Assembly (NCBI GenBank): GCA_015232565.1
Contig: JADFZK010000003.1
Location: 64,540 to 128,539 of the forward strand
Origin: Candidatus Omnitrophota bacterium
GTDB taxonomy: Bacteria; Omnitrophota; Gorgyraeia; Zapsychrales; Fredricksoniimonadaceae
Direction of reading: 5' to 3'
DNA length: 64,000 nt
The notes under the pieces are model-generated. The model was not told the DNA's origin. It did no database searches and was given only the letters and a program-made list of their open reading frames with translations. Each line of letters opens with the position of its first letter. Positions within the stretch are counted from its first letter, which is position 1. Of this stretch, positions 31,201 to 60,272 are shown piece after piece. Made by a program: the position numbers and the translations under genes.

Positions 31201-34200
31201 GTTCTTTGATTTTGCAAATCCCCTGAAACAGACGCATCTTTTGTAGACTTGATTTGCCGATCAAGAGCGGCGATCGTACTCTCTATGCCCCGCACCACAG
31301 CCTTTACCTGCGCCGCCACCCTCGGATTATCAACCTTCTCCCGCAAGCCCTGGCGCAATAATGCGTCCGGCTTGCCGCCTATCTGTAACGCCTCCACATC
31401 TTTAACTACAACCGAGGCCATTTCGCTGGATATCCTGTTTTCTGCCAGGGCTTTCTCCAGGACACCGGCGACTGCCTTAACCGCTACCTCCACGCTCTGA
31501 GTATTTGGTGACCGTAGCAATACTAATTGCTCCGAAACTTTTTCAATTACATCATTGGCCGCGCTGGCGGCAGAACTTACCGCCCGGTCGCCGGAATTAC
31601 GTAACGGCAACAATTCCAACTTCCGAGCCTGCAGGCGGATCTTTACAAAATCTTCTTTACCCGCATTGTCTGTGGCTGGCTTTACACCGCTGGCTCGCAC
31701 AAAAGCTGTGTCCAGATAAAAATCGCCCTCGGACTTTAATGCAACGGCCTTTTCACGTGCGGCTTTCGCCTTGTCTGTTTCACCGGAAGCTTCCAGAGAA
31801 TTGGCGCGGTCCAGCAAAACCTCGGCTTCAATAAGAATTTTCCGGCCCAGCGCCCTATCCAGCTCCACCGGATCTTTTGAATTTTTCAGCACATATTCCT
31901 GCTCACCCAACCGGGCACTCTGTGCCGCCTGATAAGCTTGATTGGCATTATCTTTAAGCTTGGAAATTTCTGGCGCGCTTGCACCTTTTTCCGCACCAAG
32001 CTGTAATGCTAATTGGGCTTGCTGTAATTCCGCTTCGCGCAGACGACTGACGGCTCTCTGCTCCGCCATGGAGGCAAAGACCTTGGGCGCCGCCACTGCC
32101 GGAGCTGGCGCAACTATTGGCGCCGGTACGGCAGAAGGCAGATGAACAGCGGCCGGCTGAGGCACAGGCGCCGCTGACGCCGCTGGAACCGTAGCCGCGG
32201 CTTCTGCGGCCTGCCGCTGTTCCATGTTTTTGCGAATGCCCTCTATATTCTTTTTCAATCGTAAAATCTGGGCACCCTTGTCATAATGGCCCTTTGTTTT
32301 GGGCTTTAGTTTCCCCAGATCAGTTGTCGCCTGGTTGAGCAATCTCTCAAGATGTGCTAATTCTTGAGCCGGAGAACGCCCCTGTGCGGGCTTTGCTGTG
32401 GCCATCTTGGCAGAGGTGCCATCAGCCTTAGGCTTAACAGTCGGCGTGGAAACCACCGCATCCGCGGGACGAGCCGCCGGAGCCATTTCGGCATCGGAAC
32501 GGGCCTGACCAGCGGCCGGTTCTAATTGCGGAACGCCCGTTTCGGCCCGGCCGGCTTCGCCGGGTTTAGCTACCTCGGACGGCCTGGACGCTCCAGGCAA
32601 AGAAGCTGACGGTTCATGTGCCGCCGCTGGGGCCGCGGCCGGCTCAACCGCCGCAGAGCCCGGCTTGCCGGCACCCGCAACATTAGCCGATTCAGGGGCA
32701 GAAGAAGATTTGGGAGAAAGCTCAACAGAATTTCTAGCCAGCTCCGGAGCAGGAGAAGCCGCCGCTGGGCTGGCTGAAACCGGTGCCGCCGCAGAGGCTG
32801 AGGCCGCGGCCGGCTCAGCCGCTGAAGACCCTGGCTTTCCGGCACCCACGGCATCAGCCGGTCCGGAAGCAGAGCCAGATTTAGGAGCAAGAGCAGACGC
32901 CGTCGGAGCCGCAGCACCCGGCACAGGAGGCAGAACTGCAGGCGCCGCCGCCGGAGCTACAACCGGTGCAGAAGGCGCCGCCGCGGGCGTTCCCGCCGAA
33001 GCACCCGCCGTTGAAGCAGGCGCCGAAGCCGCGCCGGAACCCGCCGGTTTCGCCGCCGCTGGCGCAATAACGGGCGCCGCAACAGGCGCCGGAACAGGAG
33101 GCATAACTGCAGGCGCCACCACCGGTGCCGCCGCACCCGGCACAGGAGGCGCCGTAGCGCGGCCCGCCAGATTAACAGGCGCTGGGAGCGGGGCTGGAAC
33201 AGCCGCCACTCTGGGCGCCGGCGCCACAGTTGCCGCAGGCGCACCCGCCGCCGGGCCAGCTACAGCCGGAGCGGTGGCCGGCGCAGGCGCCAAAGCCCCT
33301 GCCGGTACCACAGTCTGCAACAAAGACACCAGCTTGGCCTGCTGTTGCAGCTGCCTTTTGAGAGACGGCGATTTACCCATATTCCCGCCCGGCACAAAGA
33401 ACAAGCTTACAAAAGCGCCCTGCTTGGCCAGCTCGGTGCGCTTAACCTTAACCATATCTTCAATAACTTTATTGTCTATGGCCGCATTGCCGCTAAGCAG
33501 TCCGGCCATATCGGCCCGAGCTTCTTTTTCCAAACGAGCCACCATCCCCGGAGCAATATAAGGAAACGCCTTGTACACCAAAGCGTCGTTCAAGGACAAT
33601 ACGCCAATAGTACCCGCCATACCAAAGCCATGATAAATCCCGGAAAGACGCCCGGCGCTCCTGGCCAGCAAGCCGGTGGGCTTGGCCGAGATCGCCGATA
33701 ACGGCATCTGCAACACACCCAGCGTGGGCCCCAGGCTGTAACCGCTTTGCAAGCCGCCCACCACGTCTTCCTTTAACATCTCGCCAAAGCCGGTCCGTTT
33801 CAGGCGGCCTTCTTTGTCGAATTGCGGCAAGCCGCTGCCATCCAGCGCCAGCGGCCGGAAAGTATTAAAAGACTGCACCCCGGCCTCAGCCCAGCTGATG
33901 CGGCTCCCGATCGTATTCTCTACTCCGTAATTCACTATTCTCTGCACCGGCAGGCTTACCAGGCGCCAGGCCGGCATCATAACCGCAAAGTCCAGGGAAG
34001 CGGCGATCGACATCTTTACGCTCATCTGCGGATAAAGGCTCATGTTCAAAAGGTTGGCATCCAGCTGAACCATGTCTGGCCCCACCATTACATTGCGCGA
34101 CCAGGTCTGTAAGACCGGCCGGGTAATAGCCAGAACGCTCAGCAACCCGCCCGCCGTAGCACCATAACCCACATAGCCCAGGCGCTCTTGCCAGGACATG

Positions 34201-37200
34201 TTTTTCTGTGGATCGGCATACGAAGCCGCCCACCCGCCAGCCGCGCCAACAGCGGTTCCGCCAGCCAGCCTTTTTACCGCGCCCGACGTTAAAAGATCTT
34301 TAAAATACACACCGGCGGTTATCTGCCGGTTGGCCGCGACTGTGCCGGCAGTCTGGAACGGCGCCGAAGAATACGGTGAGAGCTCAAAAACAGCCTTCAC
34401 CCGGTCTACAAAAACATCCAGCCGCGACGTAGGCGGACCCATGGGTTTAGCCGCCGGCTCACCCCACACCGCCCGTTGTGCCCAGCGCGGCACGATCTTA
34501 ACGCCAGCCGAGGCCAAAAGACCAAAGCCGGCATCAAAAATCATCTGCCGGTTGATTACATTGGTATCGCTGTAATTTCTCTTCCAGGCCTCGTTACCGC
34601 CTTGGGCCAGATACCGGTCGGTCATACCACCGCCCACACTCACCAGCGTATAGCCCGCCGCGTCGTAAAGAGAGCCCCAGGCATTGGTTTTCCAGAAACT
34701 ACCAGGTAAGATATTCTTTACACCACCCACCACCAGGCCGCCCGCCACGCCCACACCGGCATCGACCAGTACTTGCCGGGTCTTGATGTAATCGTTCCAC
34801 ACATCGCGGCCGCTAAACTTGGTAAGCACCGCGCCGCGCAGTACATTCACCGCCATACCGCCAATAGCTTTACCCGCCAGTTCCCGGGCGTAACTGGATT
34901 GTATGCCCGCGAAAGACCGTGATAACTGGGCCCCGCCGCCCAAAGCCAAGCCCGCCAGAGCGCCCCAGCCCCAGCTCTCGGCTCCCTTAATAAAACCGTT
35001 ATCTTCTTTACGATACAATTTCTCGTTCACCACGCTGTCTATGCCCAGCTGGATATTGCCCGCGGAAAGAGCCGAATTAACAAAAGCCTGCCGAGCCGAT
35101 ACCTGGGCGGCATCTTTTACCGCCGCCGGCAACATGCTCCTGGCCAACAAAGTGGTCACCGGGACTATCGCCAATATGGCGGCATCCTGCTTGAGCGTTA
35201 ACAATTCGCCGTTAACCAGCAATGAACCCGCGTTAGACAAAGCCGCCACGCGCACGCCGCTGGCCATGGATTCCAGCGCCCGGGCCGAGAACCCATTGCC
35301 CATCACACCCGGGTTCCGCATACCAAGCACAGCCAAAGGCACGAAAGCGGCGCCGATACCCGCATCTTTGAGGATTTGCCCGCCGGTTACATAATCAAAT
35401 ACGGTTCCGCCTTGCGCCCGGTTGCTGGTAACGCCATAAGCCACATTAGCAGTCGCTCCGCCAGCGGATAAAACCGTTAAGCCCACCGCCCATTTTTGCC
35501 CCTCAGTCAAAACCACAGGAGTAGAGGCTCCCAGCTTGGAAGCGACAAAAGTAAACCCTCGGGAAGTCGCCACGGCATTGCCCAAGCGCGGAACACCACT
35601 GCTAATTGCTGTTGAAGTTCTCGCCGCCAAACCACCGGCACCAAAAACGCCCAACCCCGAGATAGCCTTGGCACCCAGATTAAAAATGCCCATAGCCAGA
35701 ATAGCCGAATTCATTTCATCTTGACCTAAGCCCCTGCCGGTGTTGTACAGGCTATAATTATCCAATGCTACAGTTGAAACGGCCCCGATGGCAGATCCAG
35801 CTCCTGCAACACCCGTCAACCTTCCTCCCAAATACGCGTAGGCACCCTTACCCAAAGTTCCACCCGCATAAAGGAAAAACGAATCCCAACCCTTATTCTC
35901 TGGCCGAACCGACGCGTTCTCAGCATCACTAAAAATGTCCAACACATGACTATAACGCTCGGGTTTATTTTCATCGGTATACAACCGGCTATACCACCCG
36001 TTATAAACCCAGGTCTTACCCAGATCTCGCATCTCTTTGTTGCCTACATAAGGGATAAGACCACCCGCATACATAGCGGCCCCTATAAAGGGCTTTGTAG
36101 CTCCCCATAACGCTTCACCCGCTTTTCGTGAACCCCAGGACCATGGATTATAGGAAGGGTCATAAGTCTTGTCAGACTTGAAGCTGTTAAAGAATACTCT
36201 GGCCCCATTCGTCTCAAATATCTCCGCCACTCCATTTGTAAGGCCGGTAATATTCTTGTCCAGCTTGCGCATATCAAGCAAAATGTTCTGATAATAATCC
36301 TTTTGCGCATCGGTCAAATTGCCGGCGTTGATCTCACCTTGCAATGTAGCGCCAAAATCTTTCATTTCCTGTTGTCTTTGCTTTTCATTCTTGGTCAAAG
36401 CATCTTTCAGTTCGGAAGACCGCTTGTCCAAATTACGCTTAAGATCTATGGCCGGGATCTGGTTTTCTTCACCATTACCGGCAATAACTATAGATTTTCC
36501 GGTCTGTTCGGCCAGGTCCCTCTTCTGACGCTCAATACTTTCCAGCTCGGCCACAATAGCATCGGCCTCGGCCTTCATTTTTTGCCCCGCCGCCCAGAAT
36601 TGCACAGATAGGGGAGCCGCCTTAAGCACCTCGGCGATAACCTTCCTTTGTATATCGTCTTCGTTAACCCACAGTTCTTTCCCGTGGTCCGGCACCGTTA
36701 ATTTGTCTTCCAGTTTGGGGATCACCGCATTATCCATCAACTCCGGCAAACTATTCTCAAGCATGAACTGATCGAGCTCACGCAGTTTGGCGGCATAATT
36801 GTCCTGGGCTTCCTTAAACAACTTCTTCTCTTTGGCATCGTTAACCACAAGCCCGAACCAGTCGAAAGTATTCATTTTCTTATGAAATTCAAAACGACCG
36901 ATATAGAACATGTCTCTGGCGTAAGACGTCTGCTCCTTCAGCGCCGAAAACTGCGCCTGTTTCTCGGGAGTCATAACCGGAATCGGTAAATCCAACTTGG
37001 GCGCCGCATCTCGTATAGCGGTCTTGACGATCCTGGCGCCGTCATAATTACGGTAATCAACTATAGCCTGGCCATTCTCATCGAAAAAGATCGATTTCTG
37101 GCCCGACCCCAAAACCGCCGTCACCAGGTTTACCGGCTGAACACCATCGGCAGTCAGGCCGCGTTCACGCTGATACGTCACCTGTTCTATACCCTTACCG

Positions 37201-40200
37201 CCCAAACCAATAACCGCTACCTTGCGCAGATCACCATGGGCGGCGCCGCTAAAGTTGTAAAAATCATAAGAATCCACCATCAATCTCTGTTTACCGGTGC
37301 CCCATAAGGCGCCATCCGAATACACATTGTTCACAGTTAAATATCGGCGTGCTATTTCGGCGCCCTGCGCCTCTTCCCGGGTTTGCGGAGCCGACTTAAA
37401 TTTACTCTTGGCCTCCAGCCCTTCACTGGCAAAAAGCGGCAAAACAGCCTTACCGTAAACCCCCACCGTTATAACCGGCGAACCGTTCTCAATACGAGCG
37501 CTGGCCGGTGTAAAATTCTGCCCGCCATCCACCGATAAGCCATTAACCTGGAATTGATCCCAAACCGCGCCCACCACCCAACGCCCTTTTTCATCCTTCA
37601 CATAATCGCCGTACTGAGAGATCTCTTGCCCGGCCTTCATGTTAAATACCACCTTCTTATCCACCAATCCTCTTCCACTAGTTAATACCGGCGTAACCAT
37701 TGCTATGAGCGCATCGTCCAGAATGGCTGAAGTTGTAACAACCGCCGCATAGTCCAATTCGGAACTGCCATTCTCCTTAAAACGCACCTGATCGCTGTCT
37801 ACCCCAAAAGCATAACGCGACGCCTGCACAACCTTGCCATTCTTGTCCACACCCACCTGAAACACCAGGTTAGGCGTGTCATCTATACGGGTAATGTTAA
37901 AATCCCTGAAATCTCCGGAGAGCGTAGCCTGCGCAACATTAAGATTAGGCAAAGAAAAATCGGCTTTCTGCATACCATCCAAAGAAGCTATCCCGGCGTT
38001 TGTAGTCAGCAAACCTTCCCGTGCACGCACCGGGATCTTTAAAGCATTCAAGCCAGCCGTCGATTTCTCCTCATTCTTTTTTTCCAGCGGCTGTTTTATA
38101 ACCTCCAGCGACGTCTGCGGAAGAAGCGCAGGATTACTTCCACCAACAAGAATAGACGGATTACCAAATTCATCCAAACCAGCTCCAACACTGGCCTCAA
38201 CATCATTCAACAGCAAAGACTTAACATCAAAAGACTGCCACTTCTTTCCGCCATTGGTCACCCAAAAGTCTACTCCGCGCAATTCAGCTTTACCTTTAAG
38301 GATTTCCTTGTCGTCAACCGCGTACTTCAGGAACGACGCATCCGTGTTAATATTGGACCACCCCGACCGTAAACCCGGCGTGACCACAAAACCGTTCTGG
38401 TTGATCTCGGCCGTTTTCCCGTCCAGACTGCCCTTTTCGTTATTTACGGCTATGACCTTACCGGTAACTGCGAACTCGCCATTTTCCTGAACCTGGCCCT
38501 GCACGCTGGAAACAAAATCCTTAAAATTGAGGCCGCTGAAAGAATGGTATACTCCAGAGAACATGGGCGCAAAAGAAACCGACTGTTCCTGCAGGCTTTG
38601 CGGGCTGGTAACATTATCAAAATTTAGAACTGCGATCTTGGCGCTGTCAAACCAGCCTACCCGAGAGGCGTAGATCAAAGGCAAGACTTCGCTCGTTAAA
38701 AAACCGGATCCTGGCGGACGCAAGCCGCCATTACTATTATCCCCGGCCGCCTCCGGACTGCCCGTCTTGTTATCCGCATTGCTCTCCGGCGGTTTCTGCA
38801 TTATCTGCGAAGTGTAGAAAAATCTTTCCTGGCCATCCGCGCTGGCCTGAGCATAAAGATCGGTAAAATTCTCCGTCCGTCCGTAAAATACCGCGCTATC
38901 AACTAACTTCCCCTTGGCGTCGAAAACTTTACCGTCCCCTTTTATGCGCTGTGTAATGGGCGTAAACCTTTCATCCAGGCTCCAGGTGCCGTGTTCCCCG
39001 GTAAGACCCTCGGTGCCGCTTAAGGTCCAGCCCCGGGGCTTGCCTTCCGGTTCCGCGGTCTCGTTAACAGTCACCGCATGGCCGCTTTTTGTGCCATCCG
39101 GCAACACCATTACCATGCTCTTGGTGCCCGCCGTTAAAGAGTTCCAAAAAGTTTCCTGCCGCTCCACTGTACTTAACGGGAACAAAGCCCCGTTCTGCCC
39201 TATCTCCAGGCCGCCGCCCCAGAACGTATTGTTGGCACCGTATAAAGATATCGGCGATCCTTCGGTTATGGTCGGCCCGAAATAAGCCTTGGCACCGGGA
39301 TTAAAATTGATATCCTGCAAAGCGCCTTTCTGGAACGCAAACTCCAAAGAGCCGAAAGCCTGGCCAAAAGCGGTTTCACCCGGAATTTTGTCCAGGTTGA
39401 ATATTGCCTGGGTATTTATCGGCTTGGAGGCCGTGCCACCCTCAGATTTGCCTGGCAAAGCCAGCAATCCGAAGCCAACACCACCCAGCACCAGGGTATT
39501 GCCTTCCCCGCGAGCGCGGTCCAAATAAACCCTATGCTCCGGAGAATCCAGGTCCTCCCTATATGTAGTATAGGTACCGTTAACAGTCGTGCCATCCACA
39601 TTGCCCAAGGGCGGCACATACCGGAACTCGCCGTTTTTGTCTACTAACAAATGATTAACTATGAAATCCTCCACTATGACCTTGCTGGCGTCCGCAGGAT
39701 TCTGCATTAAATTACGACGTTCCAACGTACTGAACACTTCGGCAGGTTGCCAGTTGCCATTCTCCTGTTGGTCCGCCATTATGCCGGAGGCATTACCCAT
39801 TCTGTCTCCGGTAAGTATAAAGCGGGTAACCGGCAGGTCAGACTTGCCGTCGGCGCTATAATCGGGAGTAGTAAAGACCATCTCGTCATCTTGCCAGGCT
39901 GAATCCCGACTGTATACTCCTTTACCGTCACTAAAGTTAAGTTCCGGCAGGAAAGCATTGTTGCCCGCCTGTATCCATACCGGCTGGCTGGCGTACAATA
40001 TGGCGCCCGTCCGGTTATCCAAAGCCACCGGAGCATCGCCTTCCAGACGGTAATGAAAATTACCGTATTGCTCGTTAACCCGGGTGATCTGACCGTAAGC
40101 ATTGATCACCGGAGTTAGCCCGGCCTCAAAGCGCGAAACGAATTGCGGGCCGTTAGGATCCGGCGGCGAAGAAAGCGCTTTACCGAGCTCGTTCCAAACA

Positions 40201-43200
40201 GCATTTTCGCTAATATCCGTAGAATTATCCGCCACACCAAAGCGCCAGCCGGAACCAATAAAATTCGGCAAACCAAATGCGTCTATAAAAGATGCCTCGG
40301 GCCGGGTCCAGACAGTGTGTGTAGGCGATACCTGGTCCTGATATTTCCCCTCGATCTCAACCGACGTCATTTCCTTGGCCTGGCCAAAGAAAGGCACATT
40401 GGTAACCAGTTTACCGTTCTCGTCCCGGGTTTCCCAGTTTTGGCCATTCCAATCAAAAGCCGCGCCCTTTGGCGCTTGGGCATAACCCGGTGTCCGGACA
40501 ATTCTCTTTATACCATCCAGCTCATCCTCAAACACTTGTTTATCAGGGTCAAAGGTCAGCTCCGTGGCGGCAGTGCCTTTAATCCATGAAACCCGGCCAT
40601 TACTGTCGACCTCTTTACCGCCCTTGATCAAATACATGCTTTCAATAAAACCATTGATCAGCTCAAAATTACCCGGAACTTTAACCGCGTCCTCCGTTGC
40701 CAGCCTTTTATCGCCCACCGACCACGACTCGGGAGTTTTAGGCATCAGGGTGTTGCCGGTTAAAAGCGCCCGGCCTTTATCGCCCTCCAATGCAAAACCC
40801 ACCAGGTACGGAAACGCCCCGCCGTTAGGTAAATTTATCGGCCGGCCAAAAGTGCCTCTATTGCTGACGTCTTTGCTGGGAGGGCCCGGCAACTCATTAG
40901 TAGTTATAATATTGCCGTGGCTTAAATAACCCTCGGTGGTTATCGAGAACGGCTGGATACGATCGATCACCGGCTTATCGCTTTGCGATTTGTCGGGATC
41001 AATATTATCCAGCCCCACCACAATGCCGGCTTTATTCTCTGCCGAGAAATCGGCCGACCAGCGCGGCTGGCTCGGGAATACATTTATGCCTGCGGCATCG
41101 GTTTGAGCCTGAAAATATTTGCCGCTCTTGACCACCAGGCTGGCACGTCCTTCCGGGTCTACCCCGATATATGAATGCGGCTTATCACCACCGGTAACAA
41201 TATCCAGCCCGTACACCATGGCCGCCCCGGTCAAAGCCGCCGAACCATATCCGTTCCCACCCTGAACAAACGTGGGAGAATATTTCACGCTCACTCCCTC
41301 ATTAAAGAGCGGCATATAAAAAAATGTATCGGTGGGAGCTTCGTCCTTGAATAGAGTCCGGGTGTCGCCAACCGTTTCACTGTTGAGGTCTTTACCCTTC
41401 TTGCCCAGGATATTCACCTGCGATTGCTGTCCGGCAAAACTGGAGCCGCGGCTTGCGTCCCGCAACCAGCCCGCCAGCTCCGCAAAATCACTCCCCATGT
41501 AACTGTTATAATTACCGGAAGCTTGGTCGCCAAAGAAGTCCGCACCGAAAATTGTAGCAAAACCGGTAAGGCCGAAAGCTTTAAGGTCATAAAGACGACG
41601 CCCTTCACGAACTATGTTCAGTGAACGCCCCGCCCCGCTGGCCAAAGACAGGTCGAAGGTGGATTTACTGCCAGTCAGCACAAAATTCCGAATGAACGCT
41701 TTTTGGGTGTCGCCCAGCTTGCTAAGGTCGGTAAGCCCCTTGGCTTCAAGATCCAGGGTCATGGGCCCGCCGGCCAGGTTCCTGCGGGCGCTGACTTCCA
41801 ACTTGTTATCTCCGACCACGCGAAAATCATCGGTAGTAAGGTCCAAAAGGTTGCGGCCCGCTCTTTTTTCCCGGTACACATTGCCGAAATCCATACCGTC
41901 CAGCGAACCGCGGAAAGTGCTAGTGCCCTGGTAAAAGAAAAGCCTCCCGTAAGAGCCATCTTTTACCGAAGACTCATACGTATAAGGCTCGTCTTTTTCC
42001 TGGGGTGCCGGCTTTTGCGGAACAGGCGCAATTGCAGTATCATCTGGCTTGTCCAGCCGATAATCATACCCGGAATATATACCCGAAGAAGCCGCCATAT
42101 CCTGCGCATTGACCCCAGGATACATGTACGAAGAAATATCCTGCACCGGGGCCACCGGCTGATCCTGGGGCTTGACGGCGGCCTGAACCGGCGGACGGGG
42201 AGCTGGCAGATCCTTCAGATTCAGAGAACCGCCCTCGGAATCGCTTACAAACAACTTGTCTTTGCCAGCAACCTTAACAGTGGTAAGCATGTTATTTGAA
42301 ATATTGCTGGTAAACGACCGCCAGTAACCCGGCTTACCCTGCCGGGATTCAAAGCCTTCATTTACGACCTGTTCATGTGGAACGAAACCCTGCGTTATGG
42401 GTTTCAGATTATCTTCTTTATCCCTTAAAGGATCGCCATACAAGTCGTCCTTAAACGACTTGTCGCGCGTATATTTACCATAGCGCATACCTTTGGCGTC
42501 GATACTGACCGGCACGTTTATAGTTACCGAATCCGCCGCGTACAAACTTTGGGCATAAGCCTGTCCGCCCAGGCCCCACAAACCGTTCTGGCCGGCCTTG
42601 CCCAGCACCGCCACTGAAATAAGCTGGCGCATTACGTCTTCCCTGGTACCGTTATTAAACATGGCCTGGCCACCAAACGAGTACACATCGCCTGTCTTCA
42701 AAGGAAAAGCCCCGCAACAATAATGCAAAGCGCTAAAGTCAGCCGAAAACCGACTCCCCGGAAGATACCCGTTACCATCATCCTTGCGGTCCTTTACCCC
42801 GGTGAATTGAGCGACCATTTTGTAACCACTATCATTATAGAACGTGGTTATACTGCGATTGCCTTCGGTGGTCTTGGCGCCGGTAAAAGTTTTATCCATG
42901 CCCAGGGGGCCGTTCTTTACATTCCTGCGGGCCTGTTTCTCGAGCTCTTTATCCGAATACTCGGCGCCTATATCCAAAGCTTCCAGCCGCCGGACCTCGG
43001 CCCTGATCAAAGCCGGGTCTTTGGCGCGCTCGGCCAAATTCTCCACCGCCTGCTTGTACAAAAGCTTGTATTCGGTAGGCTCAACACCATACATGGCATC
43101 CATTTTTCTCAGCCGCCGGATCTCGTCCTCCAGAGCCTTGGAATTCACCGCCTGCTGATCACGCAGACGCTGATGCGCCATAGACAAAGCGCCGGTCGAG

Positions 43201-46200
43201 ACCGCCGCAATATCCTGCCCGAACACATATGTGTTCGCCATCTTCACTATATTACCGAACGAGGCCGCACCTACCTGCGAATACTGATCGCTCCGGTAAT
43301 TCAGGCTGGACAGTTCCCAGCGCCGGGTAGAATCCAGGATCCATTGCATTTCCACGTCTTCATCACTACGGCGCTGATCGTCGGGCAAAGCGGCGTTGGC
43401 GGCTTTGGCCTCTTCCTTTTGCTTCTTCGCGGTAATAGCGGCCTGAATAGAAAAGCCCGACATACCCGCCAAATGCTCGCCAAAAGCCAGCATTTCCAAA
43501 GGATTAGCGAAACGAAAACTGGTCTGGGAATTACCAAATTCGAGGTACCGGGTGCCGTAAACAATGTCTTTACCCATTACAACTTGAGAAAAAAGAGCGT
43601 CCGGAACCGCATTGTCACCGGGAAAGATTATGCCGTCCAGAGCCGCAACCGCCCTGGCCTTCTCCAGCGGTTTGGCCCCATTATCCTGGGCCCCCTTTGC
43701 GGCTTGATCATGAGTATAGCCATTGTCCGCACTTCTGCGCTGGATCTTGCCCTTGTTCTTTGGGTCATTGCCAAAGATAATCGCTTTATCCCATAATTCC
43801 CGAGCCTCGGGATGATCCTCGGCAAACTTGCAATCCCAAAGATCAAGTTTTTCGTCCACCTCACTCTTGATACTGGAATAATCATCCTTCTTCGCCAGAA
43901 TTGCAGTTCTTTCTTCCTCGGTTTTCGCGGCCATCAGTTTAGCTTTGTCATCAGGAGTTAAGACGCTGGAGAAATTGTCTACTGCCTCCCGAACATACTC
44001 ACTTTGCGCCTGGTCGCGCTCTTTCATATATTGATCCGCCAGCCGTGCACCCTGCCGCACATCTTCGTTGATCTTGGGCTGGTCCAAAGCATCCAAAGCC
44101 CCCAGCGTAACACCGGCCATAAAATTAGCCATCGTGCCCGCCACTATATTGTATTGCGCCGCCAGATAAGCATGGTTACGGGACTGATCATCTTCGCCGA
44201 TGATCTCTTCCCGCAAAGTGTCAAAAGCCCAGGCCGAAAGCGAGCTTAATACCGCGCTTCCCACGCGCACCTTGAGGTTGTCCCACACACTACCGGGGCC
44301 TGCGGCCAGTCGTTCGCCCGGGGTTTGCATAAGGTTACCCGCGCCATAGGAAACCACCCCCGCCACACCCTGCCCTACCGCTTTGGACGCCAAAGACTCC
44401 GGATCACCGCCCACCAGATAACGCGCCAGACCGCCCGCCAACTGGCCAATAGAACTTTGCGCTCCGGCCCGGGCAAAGCCCTTTAAAGCCGTCCAGACAT
44501 TGCTCCGGGAAAAAGAAATCTCCGACCTCGCCAGCCGGTCATTAGCCACCGCATCCCGCGCGGCCATGACCTCAGGTTTAGACACATCCAGCTTGCCGTC
44601 CTTAAACATGCCGTTCAGATCGGTCACATGAGCCTGCATTTTGTCCAGGCCTTCCAGCCGGGTCATCTCTAGTGTTTCCTTTTTGGTAAGGCCAACCTCG
44701 CCATCAAAAATGTTAGCGTCGTCTTGAGTTTTAAGTAAAGCCAGCCGTTTCTGGGCGTCATTGTCCATAAGGTTTTTGAACTTGCCGGCTTTTTGCTCCT
44801 TCGCCATATCGCCGGCGATCTCATTTTTGGTAATTTGCTCGGATTCCGCCAAAAACGCTTTGCCGGCGGCATCTCTTTGCCCCTGGTTAAAGTCCCGGAA
44901 CTCCGGGCTGGCCAAGATTTCTTTGGCCAATTTCTGATCGTGCTGGGCATCCCCGGTTCTTTCAATAAGGCGGTCGTTTACCTTATCCGCACCGTTTATG
45001 GGTTTGCCATTATCATCGAATTCCGGAACGAACTGATCCTTGGATTTCACAATGGCTTCGTTCTCAGCCGCTTGCTCCCTGGAGGCATCCTGCATAGTGT
45101 CAGTCTGCACCCCCACCATATCTTTAAAATAAGTAATATCGTGCCCGGCAACCTGGGCGGCCACGGCGTCAAAGGCCACCGCGGTTCCGGTAATGGCCAG
45201 GCCGGCGGCCAGCGAACCGGCCACCCCGCCTATCGTCTGGCTGGCAATGATACAACCCTTGTCGTCCTTGTCGCAATCAAAAGTCTCGGCTATAACCAGC
45301 TGAACCTCGTAGCTTACCCCAGCGCCTACCAGCGCTACTGCGAAAGACGTGGCAAAATCCTGGACCATACCGGAAGCAAAACCGGCCAGAGCACTGGTCC
45401 CGGCGTCCTTGGCGTTCTCGATCCCCGATACTCCGCCGCTCACACCAACGCTCAAGGCTGTACTTAAAGAAATACTAAGAATGGTTCCCGTCTTTTCCGA
45501 ACAGTTGCCCGACATTACGCAAGCTTGCGCTACCGCACCTACGAATTTACTGATCCCGATGCTCGCTATGGCCATGGCGATCACGGTTTGTATTTTGGTC
45601 GCGATCATGCCCATCTTGGCCAGGAAGATCAGGATCTTTTGGATCGCGTTAAGTGTTTCTCCCGCTTTTTGAGCCGCTATGGCGGCATTCGCCGCACCGC
45701 TCAAAGCCGCGCCCACGCCAAGGGAAACCACCAGCATGGCAAAGCTCAACCCCACATCGGTCCAGATCTGGCTGGTGCTCACCAGGCCCGGCAGGTCGCC
45801 GGAACGGTCGCGCCACTTGTTGCCCCACACAAAAGTAAGGGTGGTGTCGTCCACCGCGGTAAAATCCGCCCGCACAAAAGTGCCCATGTCTTTCGCCAGC
45901 GCAAAACCGGAGAGTTTGGCAATAAATTCGGCTTTGGGGCTTTGGCTGATCTTGCCGATATCGTTAAAGAAAACCGTGTCTTCCGTTACCTTGGTGACCG
46001 TAACGAAGTGCTCCTCTTTAAAATGCGCCACGAACGGCGTGCGGAGTTTTACCACATCATCCGGGGCCAAACGGGCACCGCTGTATTTCAGGCCGAAAGC
46101 CTTGGCGGCCTGGCTGATTGAAAAGAGGGAAATCTTAAGTTTGGGTTCCCCGGCCTTGATAACATTGCTCAAAAGGTCGGTAGAAATGGTAAGCACCGCC

Positions 46201-46913
46201 AGCTCTTCCAGCGGCTTATTTATCCCGGCATTAGCCAGAATGTCCTGCAGAGCATAAACGCCGCAATTCAGCACGTTCAGGCTGGGCTTATTAAGCCATA
46301 CAGCGATATCTTTGATTTGCGTGGGCGTAAACTTGGCCAAAGCGTTGATCAACAGCGCTTTGCCGTCTTTTTTCTGGTCGTCAAGTCTAAGCGATACGCT
46401 CTCGGCCTTCTGGCGGTTAACGTCGGTCAGCAACTGGTCCACACTGCCCGCTACCTGGCGAGCGGCCAGTTCGGCCGGGGTAATATCCGGGTTCTGCATT
46501 ACCAGCGGAGCCTTGTTGCCCCAGATAATGGCCGGATTATAGTTAAACGCCCAGCTGATCTGGTCGGGGATGAAAACACAAAGCACCGTAAGCGCAATAG
46601 CCCGGATCCAGTTATTGAACCGGGAAGCAAACTGACCTTCCGGGTAACCGGCCGTTACACCTTCGCCAGCAGGAGGAAACTGATCGCCACCCGGCACGTT
46701 AGCATTATAGCCAGCAAAACCGGCGCCAGCCAGGTCCGGAAATTGCCTAACCAGCTCGGAATCCGAAAGTTGCACATTGTCATTTGCCGCAGAGGACGGC
46801 TCAACCGGGGAAATTTCAGCAGATTGGGGGAGGGCAAAAGAAGAAATATCCTCTTTATTATTAAAAGAAGATTCAGAATTGTTAGAAGACTGTGGTTTAC
46901 CGTTTTCAGTCAT
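1..46913 (-). CDS. Giant multidomain protein, partial. The N-terminus is in the window; the C-terminus runs past the window start. At least 15,637 codons.
   Basis: No stop is reported in minus frame 2 (coordinate 46913 mod 3) across 46.9 kb. All listed minus ORFs in 1-46913 lie in the other two frames, and the plus ORFs are short antisense shadows. ATG at 46911-46913 follows an in-frame TGA 48 nt upstream. GC3-rich codon periodicity holds throughout. A reverse-complement read gives continuous protein-like sequence with domain motifs. Confidence 0.8.
9060..9900 (-). other. Clan GH-A (GH5-like) TIM-barrel glycoside hydrolase domain within the giant protein
   Basis: …[19 protein letters not shown]… carries the NEP acid/base motif (codons at 9586-9606). 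…LNWYRH… follows, then …[12 protein letters not shown]… carries the nucleophile motif (codons near 9285-9300). The spacing is typical of GH5-type enzymes. Confidence 0.55.
13600..15430 (-). other. Low-complexity Ser/Ala/Val/Asn region followed by a Pro/Ala/Thr-rich linker (15160-15430) in the giant protein
   Basis: The translation shows …[23 protein letters not shown]… repeats and …[43 protein letters not shown]…. The DNA has imperfect 24-bp tandem repeats at about 14590-14720, and the Arg-rich plus-strand shadow ORF 15162..15380 overlaps it. Confidence 0.55.
21850..22100 (-). other. Degenerate M23/LytM-like or hybrid-barrel segment
   Basis: …[73 protein letters not shown]… follows the M23 beta-barrel spacing but lacks the HxH metal ligands. 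Confidence 0.25.
24000..24480 (-). other. GNAT-like acetyltransferase segment
   Basis: …[82 protein letters not shown]… has the beta-strand/V-shaped fold pattern and an R/Q-x-x-G-x-G/A acetyl-CoA motif (KLGLGAAL). Confidence 0.4.
25626..25640 (-). other. HExxH (HELMH) zinc-metallopeptidase-type motif
   Basis: Minus-strand codons CAT GAG CTT ATG CAC at 25626-25640 give …[16 protein letters not shown]…. This is a motif only. Confidence 0.25.
29330..29370 (-). other. P-loop-like motif (LAMAGGKTT) resembling helicase / SecA motif I
   Basis: Codons GGC GGT AAA ACC ACG at 29343-29357 on the minus strand give GGKTT. The surrounding sequence is …[42 protein letters not shown]…. Confidence 0.25.
32150..33330 (-). 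other. Ala/Pro/Val/Gly-rich low-complexity linker of the giant protein
   Basis: Minus-strand translation is dominated by AP/APA/PAV repeats (…[32 protein letters not shown]…). The plus strand here gives the A/G-rich shadow ORF 32665..33561. The DNA is built from GCC/GGC/GCG triplet runs. Confidence 0.6.
45100..45800 (-). other. Cluster of hydrophobic segments (predicted transmembrane anchor region) after the peptidase-like domain
   Basis: Long runs of A/G/V/I/L-rich segments (…[20 protein letters not shown]…, …[21 protein letters not shown]…, …[14 protein letters not shown]…) read between verified landmarks at 45748-45812 and 45098-45146. Confidence 0.4.
45950..46330 (-). other. Papain-fold (C39-like) cysteine peptidase motif region at the N-terminus of the giant protein
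   Basis: Read on the minus strand: ...[16 protein letters not shown]... (Cys codon at 46263-46265), then about 80 aa later ...[21 protein letters not shown]... (His near 46010). The spacing and context match a C39-type Cys/His dyad. Confidence 0.4.
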
Positions 46914-47074
46914 ATTTATACCGAGTTTGTGAAACAATGGAAGTATAGCACATATATGCTGTCAAGCAAATTTTTGGCAAAAATAAATGCCCTCACAACC
47001 CATTTCTCAACAATGCCTTACATTCCATGCAGAATCTTTTTTCCAAAAAAAATTGCATTAAATCTCTTAATATA

Positions 47075-47117
47075 AAAAAAACAAAAAAAAGATTGCAAAA
47101 CTCTGTTTGGACATTAA
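47075..47117 (-). promoter_or_regulatory. Putative sigma70-type promoter for the giant gene, with an adjacent TGGACATTAA half-site
   Basis: On the minus strand, TTGCAA sits at 47093-47098, an A/T-rich 17-18 nt spacer follows, and TATATT sits at 47069-47074. An A/T tract lies upstream. The half-site 47108-47117 exactly matches the right half of the 59188-59210 palindrome. Confidence 0.25.
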
Positions 47118-47160: not shown

Positions 47161-47305
47161 CGGGTATCAAGCAGCATGCAGAATCTTTTCACGAATAACT
47201 GCTCCACCAAGAGCGGGCATCAAGTAGCATGCAGAACCTTTTCACGAATACCTGTCGTATCAAGAGCGCGTATCAGGTAACGTGCAAACCCCTTTCACAA
47301 ATACC
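47161..47305. repeat. Three tandem repeats of about 53 bp, sharing the GCATGCAGAAYCTTTTCACGAATA core. A fourth partial core copy lies at 47026-47040.
   Basis: 47161-47213 and 47214-47266 match at roughly four of every five positions. 47267-47305 is a decayed third copy. Confidence 0.6.
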
Positions 47306-47340
47306 CTCCCCCTCTGTGGGGAGGGTCAGGGAGGGGGACA
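47304..47340 (-). terminator. GC-rich hairpin (CCCTCCCC / GGGGAGGG stem, 6-nt loop) followed on the minus strand by UAUUUGUGAAA, copy A
   Basis: An inverted repeat with an 8-bp G/C stem sits at 47304-47325, and a U-rich tail follows in the minus sense. The element is duplicated at 47507-47545. Confidence 0.3.
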
Positions 47341-47354: not shown

Positions 47355-47373
47355 ATTGTCCAGACTGGACAAT
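47355..47373. promoter_or_regulatory. Perfect 9-1-9 palindrome ATTGTCCAGACTGGACAAT (core TGTCCA-N3-TGGACA), copy 1
   Basis: The inverted repeat was checked base by base. It is duplicated at 47559-47577 and related to the site at 59188-59210. Confidence 0.6.
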
Positions 47374-47506
47374 CTCTTGAAACACAAAGACCCTAAATGG
47401 TTTACAGCACCAAAGAGGGTCGCTTTTTACTTCATAAAGAATGTCCAAACACCCAAAAGACTTCCTTAAAACAGAAACTTAATCATCAACAAATCCCGCT
47501 CACAAA

Positions 47507-47545
47507 ATACCCTCCCCCTCTGTGGGGAAGGTCAGGGAGGGGGTT
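47507..47545 (-). terminator. GC-rich hairpin plus U-rich tail, copy B, about 40 nt downstream of the tadC-like stop codon
   Basis: The sequence matches copy A with one stem mismatch. In the minus sense it is followed by TATTTTGTGAG. Its position just after the stop at 47584 fits an intrinsic terminator. Confidence 0.35.
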
Positions 47546-47558: not shown

Positions 47559-47577
47559 ATTGTCCAGACTGGACAAT
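47559..47577. promoter_or_regulatory. Perfect 9-1-9 palindrome ATTGTCCAGACTGGACAAT, copy 2
   Basis: The sequence is identical to copy 1 and sits about 7 nt from the tadC-like stop. Confidence 0.6.
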
Positions 47578-47583: not shown

Positions 47584-48483
47584 TTACTTGCCTAACCCGC
47601 CCAGCGGATTGTTCATTACGAAATCCAGGAAGATCGGCGCGCCAACTAAAATGAAAACTACCGGAAAAATAAAGAACAAAAGCGGGATAAGCATCTTGAG
47701 CGGAGCCTTTAAAGCCATCGCTTCCCCGCGCCGAAAACGAGCCAAACGCATATCTTCCGAAAGAATGTTCAAAGCCTCGCTGACTGAAGTACCCATCTTG
47801 TCGGCCTGAATAAGCGTCCGGGCAAAGGTGGAAAGGTCCGGCAATTCGTACTTTTTGGCCAGGTCACGCAAAGCCTCGCGCCGGGGCTTGCCTACGCTGA
47901 TCTCCTGCAAAATATTGTTCAGTTCCCGGTTCACTACCGAATCGGCCGATTTCTCCACCACCCATTTAAGAGCCATCATAAAGTCCAGCCCGGCATTTAC
48001 GCACAAACCCAGCAGATCCACCGAATCCGGCAATAAACGCACAATATCGTCCTTGATCTTGCCAATGCGTGAACGCAATACCATCTCCGGGCCTATATAA
48101 CCTATTGCAACAGCCATCAGAATACCAAAAACCAGCAAATCTGGCGGCACAACCCGCGATAGCAACATAATAAGCGCACCCGTCAAAACCAGCTTGATCA
48201 ACATAAAAGCTTCCGGCGTAAGGTCGGTCTGCGAGATCATCAGGTCGCGCGTGAGGCGCTTGCGCATTTCCGGGCTAATTAACGGCTTAACGATCAAAGC
48301 AATACCGTTAAGAAAGAAAAAACGGTCCACTTTCTGCTTTTGCACCTTAGCTTGCGGCGTTAAAGGCGATATACCCAGGTCCTTAAGGTTCAAAGAAGGC
48401 CTATCATCCTTTGCCACCGGGGAAAGGCCCACGATCAACAAGGAGATCGAAAGAAAAACCAGGATCAATGTAGCTGTTAACAT
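47584..48483 (-). CDS. Inner-membrane platform protein with a single T2SSF domain (GspF/PilC-half, TadC-like)
   Basis: This is a 299-aa ORF with three hydrophobic segments. The conserved T2SSF cytoplasmic helical domain pattern (…DLLGLCVNAGLDFMMALKWV…, …RREALRDLAKKY…, …SVSEALNILSEDMRLARFRRGE…) is read directly. Confidence 0.6.
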   Translation of the reverse strand: MLTATLILVFLSISLLIVGLSPVAKDDRPSLNLKDLGISPLTPQAKVQKQKVDRFFFLNGIALIVKPLISPEMRKRLTRDLMISQTDLTPEAFMLIKLVLTGALIMLLSRVVPPDLLVFGILMAVAIGYIGPEMVLRSRIGKIKDDIVRLLPDSVDLLGLCVNAGLDFMMALKWVVEKSADSVVNRELNNILQEISVGKPRREALRDLAKKYELPDLSTFARTLIQADKMGTSVSEALNILSEDMRLARFRRGEAMALKAPLKMLIPLLFFIFPVVFILVGAPIFLDFVMNNPLGGLGK

Positions 48484-56621: not shown

Positions 56622-56700
56622 CGCGCGCCACCCCTGTGAACAAAATACATCTGGCCGGGGCTTCCTTGAACATCACTGCGAAGCGAGAATGTTCCCGGCT

Positions 56701-56729: not shown

Positions 56730-56889
56730 CCCGCAAATAATATCAAACAAACTTTATTCGCAGTACAACCCCGCTTTAAACGGAGCCGAAAGGCGTTACG
56801 GCACACCCCTTCCATACAAGCGTCACCAAAGTATAACATATGAAATTGAACGCCGCAATGGTGAAAACGAAATTAGTTTTGTGGAAAAG

Positions 56890-59145
56890 TTAAAGTGTAA
56901 AAACTATGCGGCGGCCATCGGCGGTTTTGAAAAAAGCGGCGTTAAGCGAACTTAAAATAATAGTTAATTGCGGCTGGTAAGCGTAATCTTCCGGTAACTG
57001 AAAACGCAAGAAAACGGTATCAGGGTGTTCCTGAATGTAACCAGAGAGGTCGTAAAGCCAGTGGCACATTCCCAGCCAGGAAAGCGCCTGACAGGTGGAA
57101 TCCAGGAAATATTTCCGCAGTAAAACATCAACTTCCCTGATCACAGCCGAAATACTGCCTATTTGTGGAGCAAAAGACAGCGCTTTACCCTCAATTAGCT
57201 GGCCGCATCCCACATCAGAGGCGATAGTAGAATTGAATAATTGCCGGAAAATATCTTCCGCACCGCACTTTTCAGCCGGAATATTTGACAATAATACAAA
57301 TTCTTCCCCCCAGCCTTCCGGCTTGACTGTTAACACCCTTAATGGCTGATCCGCCCCCTCGACCGCCAGCGCGCCTTCAAAATATCCGCAGGACCTGTCC
57401 GCTATGGGGTCGAAGTACGCGCGGTGATTGTCGATCATTTCGTATTCCACGCGGGCCATTTCGCTTTCGGAAAGGCGCACCCGCAGAATAAAATCCCGAC
57501 GGATAGCCGGAATGGACAGAAATTCCGCGCATTTGGTGTCATTATCGCCAATAAGCTCCAGGGAACCAAAGACGTCCTCACCGCGGCCGTCCATTAAACG
57601 GATAAAAGCCAGCAGTTCCGGCTGTAGGCCAAAAGCGGGCACATTGGCCATTACCGGCTGCATATTGGTGATAATGCTGTCGACCGCCCGCTCGACCGCC
57701 ATGAATATTGGCAAAGCGGCCGCCGGGGACTGGCCGAATACCGAAGCCTGGCCGGCGTCGATGAATTCATAATTCAGGGCCGGTAAGGCGGCATCCAGAT
57801 AAAAACGCGCGCCTTTAGCCGACAACAGGCGGAAATATTTCACCGGCGTGAACGCCATGGTAAGCTCGGTATGTATGGCCGTGCAAAGGGTTTTGTTATT
57901 TTCCAGGACGAACGCTTTATCTATGATCGCCCGGCCCTGCCGGTCTTCCAGCCCGGCCAGCCGCCAGAGCGTCGAGAGGTCATTGGATTCAAAACCAGGG
58001 CGATGTTCCGCGAACATATCCGCAAAAAGTACCGCTTCACATTGCGCCGAAGTTACGCCCTCCGGCAAAGCGCCCAGCTCGCGGGCCAAGGCCTCGCCCA
58101 AACGACAGGAAGAACAAGCCGCCTGAAAAGCGTACCAGAGCGCCGCCGCCCCCAGCCGCCCGTAAAGCTTGCCCACGTTCCCCAGCCAAAGCGCCGAACG
58201 CTCCCGGGCCTTCTCCTCTTCCCGCTCCCGGGCGCGAATGCCATCCTCAACCTCAGCCTGCACCTGTTCAAAGGAAGGCGTGCCAAAAACGGGGTCCGGC
58301 ATCAGCCGGAGAGCCCGATCGTCAGTCAACGCATTGACCGGCTCCTCAGAGTTAGCGGTCGCAGGCGTTAAGGCCTCCGGCGCCGCCAAACCAGGATCGC
58401 GCTCCGGGACCGACATGAAGGGGTCTTCTGGCTCAAGCGCCGACTCAGGCGCTATTTCCTGAGTCAGATCATTCTCAATAGGTTGCGATACAACGGGTTC
58501 TGTTAATGGCTCAGGCACTGGCTGGTCCGAGTTAAGCTCGGCCCCTACGGCCAATGAGGCTTCCGGCTCGATCGACTGATCCGGAGCATTCTCAATAGGT
58601 TGCGGCACAATGTGTTCTGCTACTGGCTGGGCACATTTATTGGGCGAATCTTCGGCTCGTGAAGTATCGTCAGATTGCCGGGCCGACACCAGGTCGGCCC
58701 CTACGGCCAATGAAGCTACCGGCTCAATCCCGGTTTCCAATGCAGCCCCGGCAATGGGATTCAGCGACTGGTCGGGCTTAGCCTCTGGGGCTCTGTCAGT
58801 TTCCGCGATCATCTCCGGCTTTGGCTTGACTTCCTCAAAAACCGCGGGCACCGTTACGGCGGGGACTACTGCCGGCAAGAACATTTGGACATTCTTCAGG
58901 AGTATGTCCTTCTTGTGCTGGGGAATAGCAAAGTTCTTGGGGGCTTTATATATGGAATGCCGGCCGATCGGCCCGCTCAGCCTGGCTTGCTTTAAAACCG
59001 CATTAACCGAGGATTTGGACACCTCAAAATTGAACTTATCCTTGATCATTTTAACCAAACCGCGGCAACTCAAAGAATGGTCGGTCCTTTTAGTTTGGAC
59101 AATAAAGTCAACAATATCCTGCCGCAATTTGTAAGCTACACCCAT
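56890..59145 (-). CDS. 751-aa protein with an N-terminal HTH-like domain, a long acidic Pro/Glu-rich tandem-repeat region and a C-terminal globular domain. Function unknown.
   Basis: …LRQDIVDFIVQTKRTDHSLSCRGLVKMIKDKFNFEVSKSSVNAVLKQARL… is HTH-like. The repeats IEPVASLAVGADLV / IEPEASLAVGAELN produce DNA repeats at about 58537-58580 and 58693-58735. No DDE triad is recognisable. Confidence 0.5.
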   Translation of the reverse strand: MGVAYKLRQDIVDFIVQTKRTDHSLSCRGLVKMIKDKFNFEVSKSSVNAVLKQARLSGPIGRHSIYKAPKNFAIPQHKKDILLKNVQMFLPAVVPAVTVPAVFEEVKPKPEMIAETDRAPEAKPDQSLNPIAGAALETGIEPVASLAVGADLVSARQSDDTSRAEDSPNKCAQPVAEHIVPQPIENAPDQSIEPEASLAVGAELNSDQPVPEPLTEPVVSQPIENDLTQEIAPESALEPEDPFMSVPERDPGLAAPEALTPATANSEEPVNALTDDRALRLMPDPVFGTPSFEQVQAEVEDGIRAREREEEKARERSALWLGNVGKLYGRLGAAALWYAFQAACSSCRLGEALARELGALPEGVTSAQCEAVLFADMFAEHRPGFESNDLSTLWRLAGLEDRQGRAIIDKAFVLENNKTLCTAIHTELTMAFTPVKYFRLLSAKGARFYLDAALPALNYEFIDAGQASVFGQSPAAALPIFMAVERAVDSIITNMQPVMANVPAFGLQPELLAFIRLMDGRGEDVFGSLELIGDNDTKCAEFLSIPAIRRDFILRVRLSESEMARVEYEMIDNHRAYFDPIADRSCGYFEGALAVEGADQPLRVLTVKPEGWGEEFVLLSNIPAEKCGAEDIFRQLFNSTIASDVGCGQLIEGKALSFAPQIGSISAVIREVDVLLRKYFLDSTCQALSWLGMCHWLYDLSGYIQEHPDTVFLRFQLPEDYAYQPQLTIILSSLNAAFFKTADGRRIVFTL

Positions 59146-59187
59146 ATTTCAGCCCTTATTCCTGAAACAATACCCATAAACACCCCT

Positions 59188-59210
59188 TTAATGTCCACAC
59201 TGGACATTAA
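59188..59210. promoter_or_regulatory. Perfect 10-3-10 palindrome TTAATGTCCA-CAC-TGGACATTAA in the AT-rich region upstream of the 751-aa gene
   Basis: The palindrome was checked base by base. It has the same TGTCCA-N3-TGGACA core as the two sites at 47355 and 47559. Confidence 0.6.
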
Positions 59211-59279
59211 AATAATAACATAAAATCACGTCTCGCGCCATAAATGTATAAAAAATAAATATGATTATTTGCACGCATC

Positions 59280-59307
59280 GTAGGGGCACGGCATGCCGTG
59301 CCCCTAC
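59280..59307. repeat. 28-bp perfect palindrome GTAGGGGCACGGCA|TGCCGTGCCCCTAC (14-bp arms)
   Basis: The palindrome was checked base by base. It lies between the abiEii-like stop (59509) and the 751-aa gene start (59145). Confidence 0.8.
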
Positions 59308-60264: not shown

Positions 60265-60272
60265 GAAGCTCC

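Follow-up and report, generated by a model that had tools for sequence, protein, structure and literature searches.

Every long ORF of the 64-kb window analysed here (the whole stretch of DNA under study, from a Candidatus Omnitrophica MAG) lies on the minus strand, and in the order of transcription T2SS-like genes are followed by an AbiE toxin-antitoxin pair, a gene for a 751-aa protein, Flp pilins, TadB/C and a giant ORF. Specifically, a GspK-like gene (62950-63948), PilM/N (61530-62945) and a 177-aa gene precede the AbiEi-like (60273-60929) and AbiEii (59509-60264) genes; the 751-aa candidate regulator gene (56890..59145) then leads into a 50-aa Flp pilin gene (56469-56621), five or six further pilin-like genes with class III signals (54176-56530), two proteins of 503 and 827 aa whose family is unassigned, and two T2SSF genes, one TadB/TadC-like (48502-49359) and one TadC-like (47584..48483), the latter being the final gene of the pilus operon. 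Across a 670-bp spacer lies the giant ORF (3..46913, ATG at 46913-46911), a putative second target of the regulation considered here, which runs off the start of the window after more than 15,600 aa and whose homologue at the related locus L004 spans 36,327 aa. Earlier work on Omnitrophota had already described giant genes preceded by a T2SS/Tad-like locus (West-Roberts et al., bioRxiv 10.1101/2023.11.21.568195). A hypothetical protein from a Candidatus Omnitrophica MAG matches the 751-aa protein residue for residue. The AbiEii/AbiEi-like pair (59509-60929) separates the T2SS-like genes from the regulator gene as an insertion that orthologous loci lack; after it comes a perfect hairpin, GTAGGGGCACGGCATGCCGTGCCCCTAC (59280-59307), of the GTAGGGG...CCCCTAC type.

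Two parts of this locus share an inverted repeat of the form TGTCCA-N3-TGGACA, and the palindromes and half-sites that an earlier, sequence-only reading had listed are all present. Site A, a 23-bp perfect palindrome (TTAATGTCCACACTGGACATTAA; 59188..59210, core 59192-59206), lies 43-65 bp 5' of the 751-aa gene ATG, over the predicted transcription start. Two identical 19-bp palindromes (ATTGTCCAGACTGGACAAT) lie in the tadC-giant spacer, where the sites begin directly after the tadC stop codon and are interleaved with terminator-like hairpins: Site B1 (47559..47577) is 7 nt past the stop of the tadC-like gene, and Site B2 (47355..47373) belongs to the second copy of a duplicated module. The same spacer holds two isolated half-sites, AATGTCCAAACA on the plus strand (47440..47451, including AATGTCCA at 47440-47447), which is a 12-nt perfect complement of 47104-47115, and TTAATGTCCAAACA on the minus strand (47104..47117, including TGGACATTAA at 47108-47117), which has the giant-gene orientation and lies ~140 bp 5' of the conserved giant-gene promoter. 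A further half-site of uncertain function, ATTGTCCA, sits at +42 within the 751-aa coding sequence (59096..59103, minus strand; codons I-V-Q); it is retained in close relatives despite a residue change (VQT to VHS in L005/L015), and coding constraint may also explain its retention.

The exact TGTCCA-N3-TGGACA 15-mer occurs three times in the 64 kb, as compared with 0.00 times in 100 dinucleotide-preserving shuffles, and the TGTCCA hexamer is twofold enriched, with 42 matches in the window against 21.3 +/- 4.8 expected; eight of these 42 fall in the ~2.4 kb of intergenic DNA that makes up 3.7% of the window. The two spacer palindromes are parts of a ~90 bp local duplicated module (a G-rich hairpin plus the palindrome) repeated at a spacing of 204-206 bp, so within the window they are not independent events, and independence has to come from other genomes. 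The module's G+C-rich hairpin, which with its T-rich tail is terminator-like, follows B1 (47509..47543, minus strand) and again B2 (47303..47337, minus strand), and an inverted partial copy lies beside the 47104-47117 half-site (47132-47160); this G-rich hairpin module is confined to the tadC-giant spacer. The spacer further contains three tandem 53-bp repeats (GCGGGTATCAAGCAGCATGCAGAATCTTTTCACGAATAAC...) at 47160-47318 and a fourth, partial copy of their CATGCAGAATCTTTT core at 47026-47049, nearer the giant-gene promoter, and a search of it against Rfam gave only a sub-threshold chance match.

Motif-like sites are also found inside regulator coding sequences. In the window, AATGTCCA occurs at +252 (58886-58893), and in L020, L023-L025, L027, L028 and L030-L032 such sites lie at +550 to +920, mostly at +700 to +815, AATGTCCAATCTG in L028 being one example. 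Some of them encode conserved residues (IVQ, NVQ, WT), in which case coding constraint and operator function are inseparable.

The window together with 35 related loci, 36 in all, formed our comparison set, in which protein identity falls to ~20%; a protein-guided scan of species-representative genomes yielded 34 loci (490 kb), almost all labelled Omnitrophota. The motif lies no more than 130 bp 5' of the homologue's ATG in 30 of the 36 loci, and in 15 of those 30 a TGnTAnnnT extended -10 box stands 2-6 nt before TGTCCA, as does the predicted extended -10 box of the 751-aa gene in the window (TGTTATTAT; 59212..59220, minus strand), which ends 5 nt before it. Since the motif starts 2-6 nt past this box, it covers the predicted transcription start. 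By a stricter measure, the 8-mer A[AT]TGTCCA is found within 350 bp 5' of the gene in 31 of 36 loci as opposed to 3% of random windows from the same loci, and four of the five exceptions carry a variant (CTGTGTCCA, AACGTCCA, or TTTGGACAAA direct repeats). The sequence-only reading had tied the motif to the 751-aa gene, and this association extends across Omnitrophota, the motif being present 5' of homologues in 30-35 of the 36 loci. A departure from the pattern is L007, where the protein is present and no site lies within 9 kb upstream.

The exact 15-mer is similarly restricted. It occurs 13 times in the 490 kb of the 34 loci, twelve times 19-50 bp before a homologue's ATG and once 5' of a giant-gene homologue; with the three copies of the window, all 16 exact palindromes in ~554 kb lie either 5' of the 751-aa gene family or 5' of a giant-gene homologue. 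Contigs bearing homologues of 45-54% identity keep the same gene order (homologue, Flp pilins, TadB/C, followed in L004 by the 36,327-aa gene), and all of these loci carry TTAATGTCCAnnCTGGACATT 40-50 bp before the ATG, directly past a TATACT or TATGAT box. The position orthologous to Site A is kept in L001/L004/L005/L006.

When upstream regions are aligned on the site, information is near zero except at AATGTCCA, the spacer W, the TG and, more weakly, GACA, giving a consensus of AATGTCCA-nWn-TGGACATT with a minimal unit of AATGTCCAnWCTG. Across the 30 loci the arms are nearly invariant and the spacer is variable; in roughly a third of the lineages the right half-site is degraded, whereas the left half and the TG persist. 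In one clade the right half stands at -12 to -7 of the ATG, where it could double as a ribosome-binding site. Within the window, a 13-codon upstream ORF (ATGGGTATTGTTTCAGGAATAAGGGCTGAAATATGGGTGTAG, encoding MGIVSGIRAEIWV*; 59137-59177, minus strand) starts 32 nt before the 751-aa ATG and overlaps the gene out of frame; its first codons mimic the MGV start of the family, pointing to a small duplication of the gene start.

The second context of the motif is the giant gene. Here the promoter conserved across genomes is TTGACA-N12-TATACT with a TGn, an extended -10 box (TTGACA..TGCTATACT; 46942..46965, minus strand), which recurs as TTGAC(A)..TGTGCTATACT in L004/L010, L024, L038, L036, L153 and L046 and which replaces the TTGCAA/TATATT pair proposed from the sequence alone. 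Two to seven hexamers are present in eight of nine upstream regions of giant-gene homologues. Such clusters lie between tadC and the homologue of the giant N-terminus in the window, L010 (= L004), L024, L036, L038 and L153, and include inverted pairs with spacers of 3, 10 or 11 nt. L053 has a cluster 5' of a giant-gene homologue with neither an adjacent tadC nor a nearby regulator gene, and L060 carries the one-base variant AATTTCCATTCTGA as a palindrome at the equivalent place. At L017 and L046 sites follow tadC with no confirmed giant-gene homologue; in L046 a hairpin of the GTAGGGG...CCCCTAC type also occurs three times after motif sites. Where tadC is instead followed by ankyrin/ABC-transporter genes (L001/L008, L006/L009), the spacer has no site. 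A link between motif and giant gene, likewise part of the sequence-only reading, thus finds support both in the eight of nine homologues and in the two loci where non-giant genes follow tadC and the motif is absent. The description of the three palindromes as promoter-proximal fares less evenly: it suits 59188-59210, with its extended -10 box 5 nt before TGTCCA, but not the spacer sites, which lie ~150-630 bp 5' of the conserved giant-gene promoter.

A metagenome scan for AATGTCCA-N3-TGGACATT returned similar contexts among 120 unselected matches: eight lie immediately 5' of the N-terminus of a homologue, three beside a TadC homologue and one more 1.4 kb away from one. The scan does not delimit a regulon. 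The remaining matches come from unrelated organisms and include other palindromic repeat families in gut metagenomes. Among these repeats sharing the core are GAATGTCCAAGTTGGACATTC, which recurs seven times within 9 kb of L151 and several times in human-gut contigs, and TCGAATGTCCATAATGGACATTCGAT, a separate family; they are found in L050, L075, L151 and others, in other organisms and with no link to Omnitrophota genes. At 3262-3590 of L129, a 3991-bp metagenome contig that encodes a terminase large subunit (Pfam Terminase-T7_RNaseH-like), there is a full palindrome together with a single half-site and four to five half-sites arrayed in tandem with a period of 14 (TTCAGATTGGACAT), which match the extended Omnitrophota half-site AATGTCCAATCTGAA. 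The contig may come from a phage that employs the same DNA-binding protein or titrates it; scans of viral contigs for the motif and for the tandem half-site array gave essentially no further examples.

Taken with the enrichment in the window, this conservation across genomes bears out the earlier suggestion that the palindromes and half-sites form one motif family, and one under selection. We are highly confident that the motif is real, conserved and specific to its two contexts. A larger regulon, or a global regulator, may extend beyond the ~554 kb scanned.

Other features of the promoters and leaders deserve mention. The three predicted promoters of the locus (46942-46950, 56830-56838 and 59212-59220) are all of the extended -10 type (TGnTATAnT), with -35 elements that are weak or oddly spaced; the recurrence of this form in all three and in related loci suggests that it is the usual promoter form of Omnitrophota. 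Furthermore, the conserved promoter and the large ORF are separated in four related loci by a c-di-GMP-I-GGC riboswitch aptamer (RF03167; 64-66 bits, gathering score 59), found at 2082-2177 of L153, 19690-19785 of L038, 408-491 (minus strand) of L036 and 681-781 of L046; the first three of these have a confirmed giant-gene homologue. The giant gene of the window has a leader of ~30 nt and no c-di-GMP-I-GGC element.

The pilin operon presents a different picture. Between the regulator gene and the first Flp gene lies a conserved extended -10 promoter, TATGTTATACT (56830-56840, minus strand), followed by a ~210-nt leader (56622-56840, minus strand) that precedes the 50-aa Flp gene and is conserved in L001, L004, L005 and L006. 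The leader is a candidate new cis-regulatory RNA: it contains a GNRA-capped covarying hairpin and a long-range pairing over the flp start codon, 13 of its 56 predicted pairs show compensatory changes in a comparison of only five sequences, and no Rfam family matches it at E <= 1. Neither this promoter nor the leader holds a TGTCCA site. The motif is no general promoter element, given its absence from the strong promoters of flp and the giant gene, and since the pilin operon has its own motif-free promoter and leader, direct control of the pilus by the motif is not supported. The earlier proposal that one regulator could coordinate the pilus genes and the giant gene is accordingly only partly supported: the motif marks both the regulator and the giant-gene contexts, but not the pilin operon itself, into which read-through from the regulator promoter is possible.

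Several other readings of the element can be set aside. Sigma-54 and ECF-sigma interpretations of AATGTCCA were rejected as there is no conserved -24/-12 or -35 partner, and a leader-peptide interpretation as there is no consistent reading frame. An AbiEi antitoxin operator does not fit, given that Site A is downstream of abiEii and that the site is kept in orthologous loci lacking AbiE. A dispersed repeat of the REP/MITE type was likewise dismissed, all 16 exact palindromes in the ~554 kb of loci being confined to two contexts.

What might read this motif? Clustering at 50% leaves 693 representatives of the family to which the 751-aa protein belongs, and the protein matches no Pfam or NCBIfam family above threshold; PDB sequence searches with full-length and N-terminal profiles returned nothing meaningful. 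Its layout consists of an N-terminal three-helix HTH (residues 9-53), a GR and basic segment, a disordered linker of variable length (~98-279) and a 470-aa C-terminal domain modelled with a pLDDT of 88 and a pTM of 0.85. AF2 places the helices at 9-21, 27-38 and 44-53 with pLDDT above 90, the third, or recognition, helix reading SKSSVNAVLK. The first 82 residues are extraordinarily conserved: in 60 sequences with ~20% overall identity, M1, G2, K6, K19, R28, S43, K44, S45, S46, G61 and R62 are invariant, and the SKSS of helix 3 is found in 60 of 60. Transposase-type profiles recognise this region in most members, with HTH_32 matching 36 and HTH_Tnp_Tc3_2 matching 35 of the 60 (E <= 0.1; best 1.5e-6 and 6.2e-6, respectively), although the window protein itself reaches E = 0.02-0.11 with these profiles, below the Pfam cut-offs. 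The bundle and the profile matches agree with the prior assignment of an HTH to this gene.

The case for pairing protein and motif rests on two parallels, namely that an invariant recognition helix accompanies an invariant TGTCCA and that the motif marks the promoter of the gene encoding the protein, a placement that classically signals autoregulation. The pairing, drawn from sequence comparison, is circumstantial. We consider it somewhat probable that the 751-aa protein reads the motif and represses its own promoter. A different trans-acting factor, encoded elsewhere, could instead read the operator and control both the 751-aa and giant genes, making the 751-aa protein a target. In its favor, protein and DNA are linked here by sequence and position rather than physically, no family assignment of the protein exceeds threshold, the protein occurs in L007 with no site close by, and sites occur in L053 with no regulator gene close by. 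Against this, the motif lies on the promoter of this HTH gene in nearly every lineage, the invariance of the recognition helix parallels that of TGTCCA, and no other regulator gene is conserved in the neighborhood, all of which make an outside factor unlikely.

The ancestry of the 751-aa protein bears on the question of what the sites once were. Top Foldseek matches of the C-terminal domain are Tn5 structures (1muh/3ecp/4dm0; E 1e-3 to 8e-3, probability 0.5-0.77), weak ones at a TM of ~0.2 and an rmsd of 15-17 A, and its top BFVD match, again weak, is an IS4-family transposase (E 5e-3). The order of its secondary-structure elements resembles RNase H with a beta-rich insertion. By sequence the domain matches nothing in PDB or Pfam, and no acidic column in it is invariant, the best being D451 at 77% and E590 at 62%, with no DDE triad. 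From these modelled folds, the domain is possibly transposase-derived. The gene is single-copy and heads the flp/tad operon at the same position in all loci with enough flank; an active, mobile IS4/Tn5 DDE transposase was rejected on the lack of a conserved catalytic triad and on this fixed position.

It could be, then, that the sites are relic terminal repeats of an ancient IS4/Tn5-like element whose transposase gave rise to the 751-aa protein, and that they serve not as transcriptional operators but in recombination or synapsis, or persist as neutral remnants flanking the pilus operon. The transposase-type HTH, the best fold matches to Tn5 and an IS4-family transposase in two libraries, the RNase H-like order with its beta-rich insertion and the position of the two site clusters on either side of the regulator-to-tadC block would all suit such an origin. 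We nevertheless regard it as very unlikely, as the fold matches are weak, the acidic triad is not conserved and the gene is single-copy with synteny conserved across the phylum; moreover, neutral relics would not remain invariant at 20% protein identity, and the second cluster tracks the giant gene, not tadC. A transposase origin is in any case compatible with the operator model and does not exclude it. Extending the operator model in this direction, the protein could be a phylum-wide domesticated transposase, a Tc3-like HTH joined to a catalytically dead IS4/Tn5-like domain, that acts as a dedicated regulator of the predation/attachment apparatus. In that role it would bind ex-terminal-repeat sites at its own promoter and at the giant gene and bridge clusters 11-12 kb apart in the manner of a synaptic complex, thereby coupling the Tad-like pilus operon to the giant protein; we offer this full scenario as speculation of low probability.

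The palindromes can also fold as RNA, forming 8-12 bp stems (z = -3.4 for the regulator leader), and a simple terminator scan flags them. When 29 distinct sequences were tested for covariation against column shuffles, the hairpin scored 0.045 versus 0.043 for the shuffles, 235 of 500 of which reached the observed score; only one cell held a double change, and four of eight pairs departed only by unpaired cells. Conservation of the sequence without conservation of the pairing points to selection on sequence and hence to recognition by a protein, most simply of duplex DNA, against an RNA hairpin, and on this comparative basis the motif is very probably a protein-binding DNA site. Action at the RNA level, with a stem-loop heading the regulator mRNA (affecting stability or sequestering the ribosome-binding site) and terminator or processing hairpins after tadC, is highly improbable: foldable stems, terminator-scan hits and, in one clade, a right arm close to the ATG would suit it, but covariation is no higher than in shuffles, the changes break pairing, about one third of lineages retain only the left arm and TG, isolated half-sites and direct-repeat arrays exist, and the loop is only 3 nt within AT-rich stems that lack a proper U-tract. 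As intrinsic (rho-independent) terminators the palindromes were rejected for their three G-C pairs, weak tails and non-conserved structure; the neighboring G-rich hairpins (47303-47337 and 47509-47543) fit a terminator better.

In the operator model that we favor, the most likely binder of the motif would be the N-terminal HTH of the adjacent 751-aa protein. The site at 59188-59210 begins 5 nt past the extended -10 box and would span about -2 to +20 of the predicted regulator transcript; a protein bound at this observed position would occlude RNA polymerase, which suggests negative autoregulation. The second cluster, two palindromes and two half-sites at 47104-47577, falls beyond the last gene of the Tad-like pilus operon and ahead of the giant-gene promoter. 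Being 150-630 bp away from the core promoter, it fits poorly with simple occlusion and would be unusually placed for a simple repressor. Perhaps the bound protein acts as a roadblock that stops read-through from tadC and reinforces termination; alternatively, it may modulate the promoter from an upstream distance, or bridge to the regulator-promoter site 11.7 kb away. That the motif influences the giant gene at all we put at even chances. Which protein binds, whether it represses or activates, and how it acts on the giant gene are the parts of this model that we infer.

The form of the site may also say something of how it is read. Asymmetric decay of the right arm suggests that each protein copy reads ~14 nt (AATGTCCAnWCTG), and a simple symmetric dimer accounts less well for lineages with a left arm only than would a reader that is monomeric or bipartite, or a function that depends on orientation. 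By analogy with paired-like transposase domains, a bipartite domain made up of the HTH and the invariant GR/basic segment could read ~14 nt.

Omnitrophota are uncultured, ultra-small and probably predatory or parasitic bacteria whose signature is the giant gene (from 15,000 to over 100,000 aa) beside a Tad/T2SS-like locus. To our knowledge, nothing has been reported on the control of these giant genes, and the motif offers a first concrete handle on how they may be controlled. More broadly, it joins a conserved cis-element to a plausible cognate protein from an unannotated family (~700 clusters at 50% identity), points to a definable regulon that can be searched for in new complete genomes, and supplies a consensus promoter type for Omnitrophota, the extended -10 box (TGnTATAnT). 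If the C-terminal domain is truly transposase-derived, the family would be a clear bacterial case of transposase domestication into a lineage-specific regulator.

In its outline the element resembles the autoregulated operators of LacI O1/TetR type, with an inverted repeat of conserved 6-8 bp arms around a short variable spacer, placement right after the -10 box of the regulator's own gene, and auxiliary distant sites. Unlike in those systems, the putative reader falls outside described transcription-factor families, its transposase-type HTH being joined through a long disordered linker to a 470-aa domain; in many lineages only one arm and the TG remain, and the distal sites lie 11-12 kb off, 5' of a giant gene.

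A second comparison is with transposases, some of which repress their own promoter via a terminal inverted repeat, and with domesticated transposases, some of which act as transcription factors. The DNA-binding domains of the Tc3/mariner type are bipartite HTHs. Most members of the 751-aa family match HTH_32 and HTH_Tnp_Tc3_2, the invariant G-R and basic segment after the HTH recalls the minor-groove linker found in paired-like domains, the site overlaps the protein's own promoter as in self-repressing transposases, and the best, though weak, fold matches are to Tn5/IS4 transposases. The family differs from transposases in having no conserved DDE residues, no sign of mobility or multiple copies, and a conserved synteny at the head of a pilus operon.

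The gene arrangement itself is like that of the published locus, in which class III signal-peptide pilins and GspF/TadBC homologues lie directly 5' of the giant ORF (West-Roberts et al., bioRxiv 10.1101/2023.11.21.568195), a report in which the words promoter, regulator and palindrome do not appear. Neither there nor in Seymour et al. 2023 or a 2026 complete-genome preprint (bioRxiv 10.64898/2026.06.07.730766) are the motif, the promoters or the HTH family as a candidate regulator described, and a literature text search for the half-site with operator or repressor returned unrelated systems only. An autoregulated operator is thus of a familiar kind, whereas the protein family, its architecture and the link to a giant gene are new.
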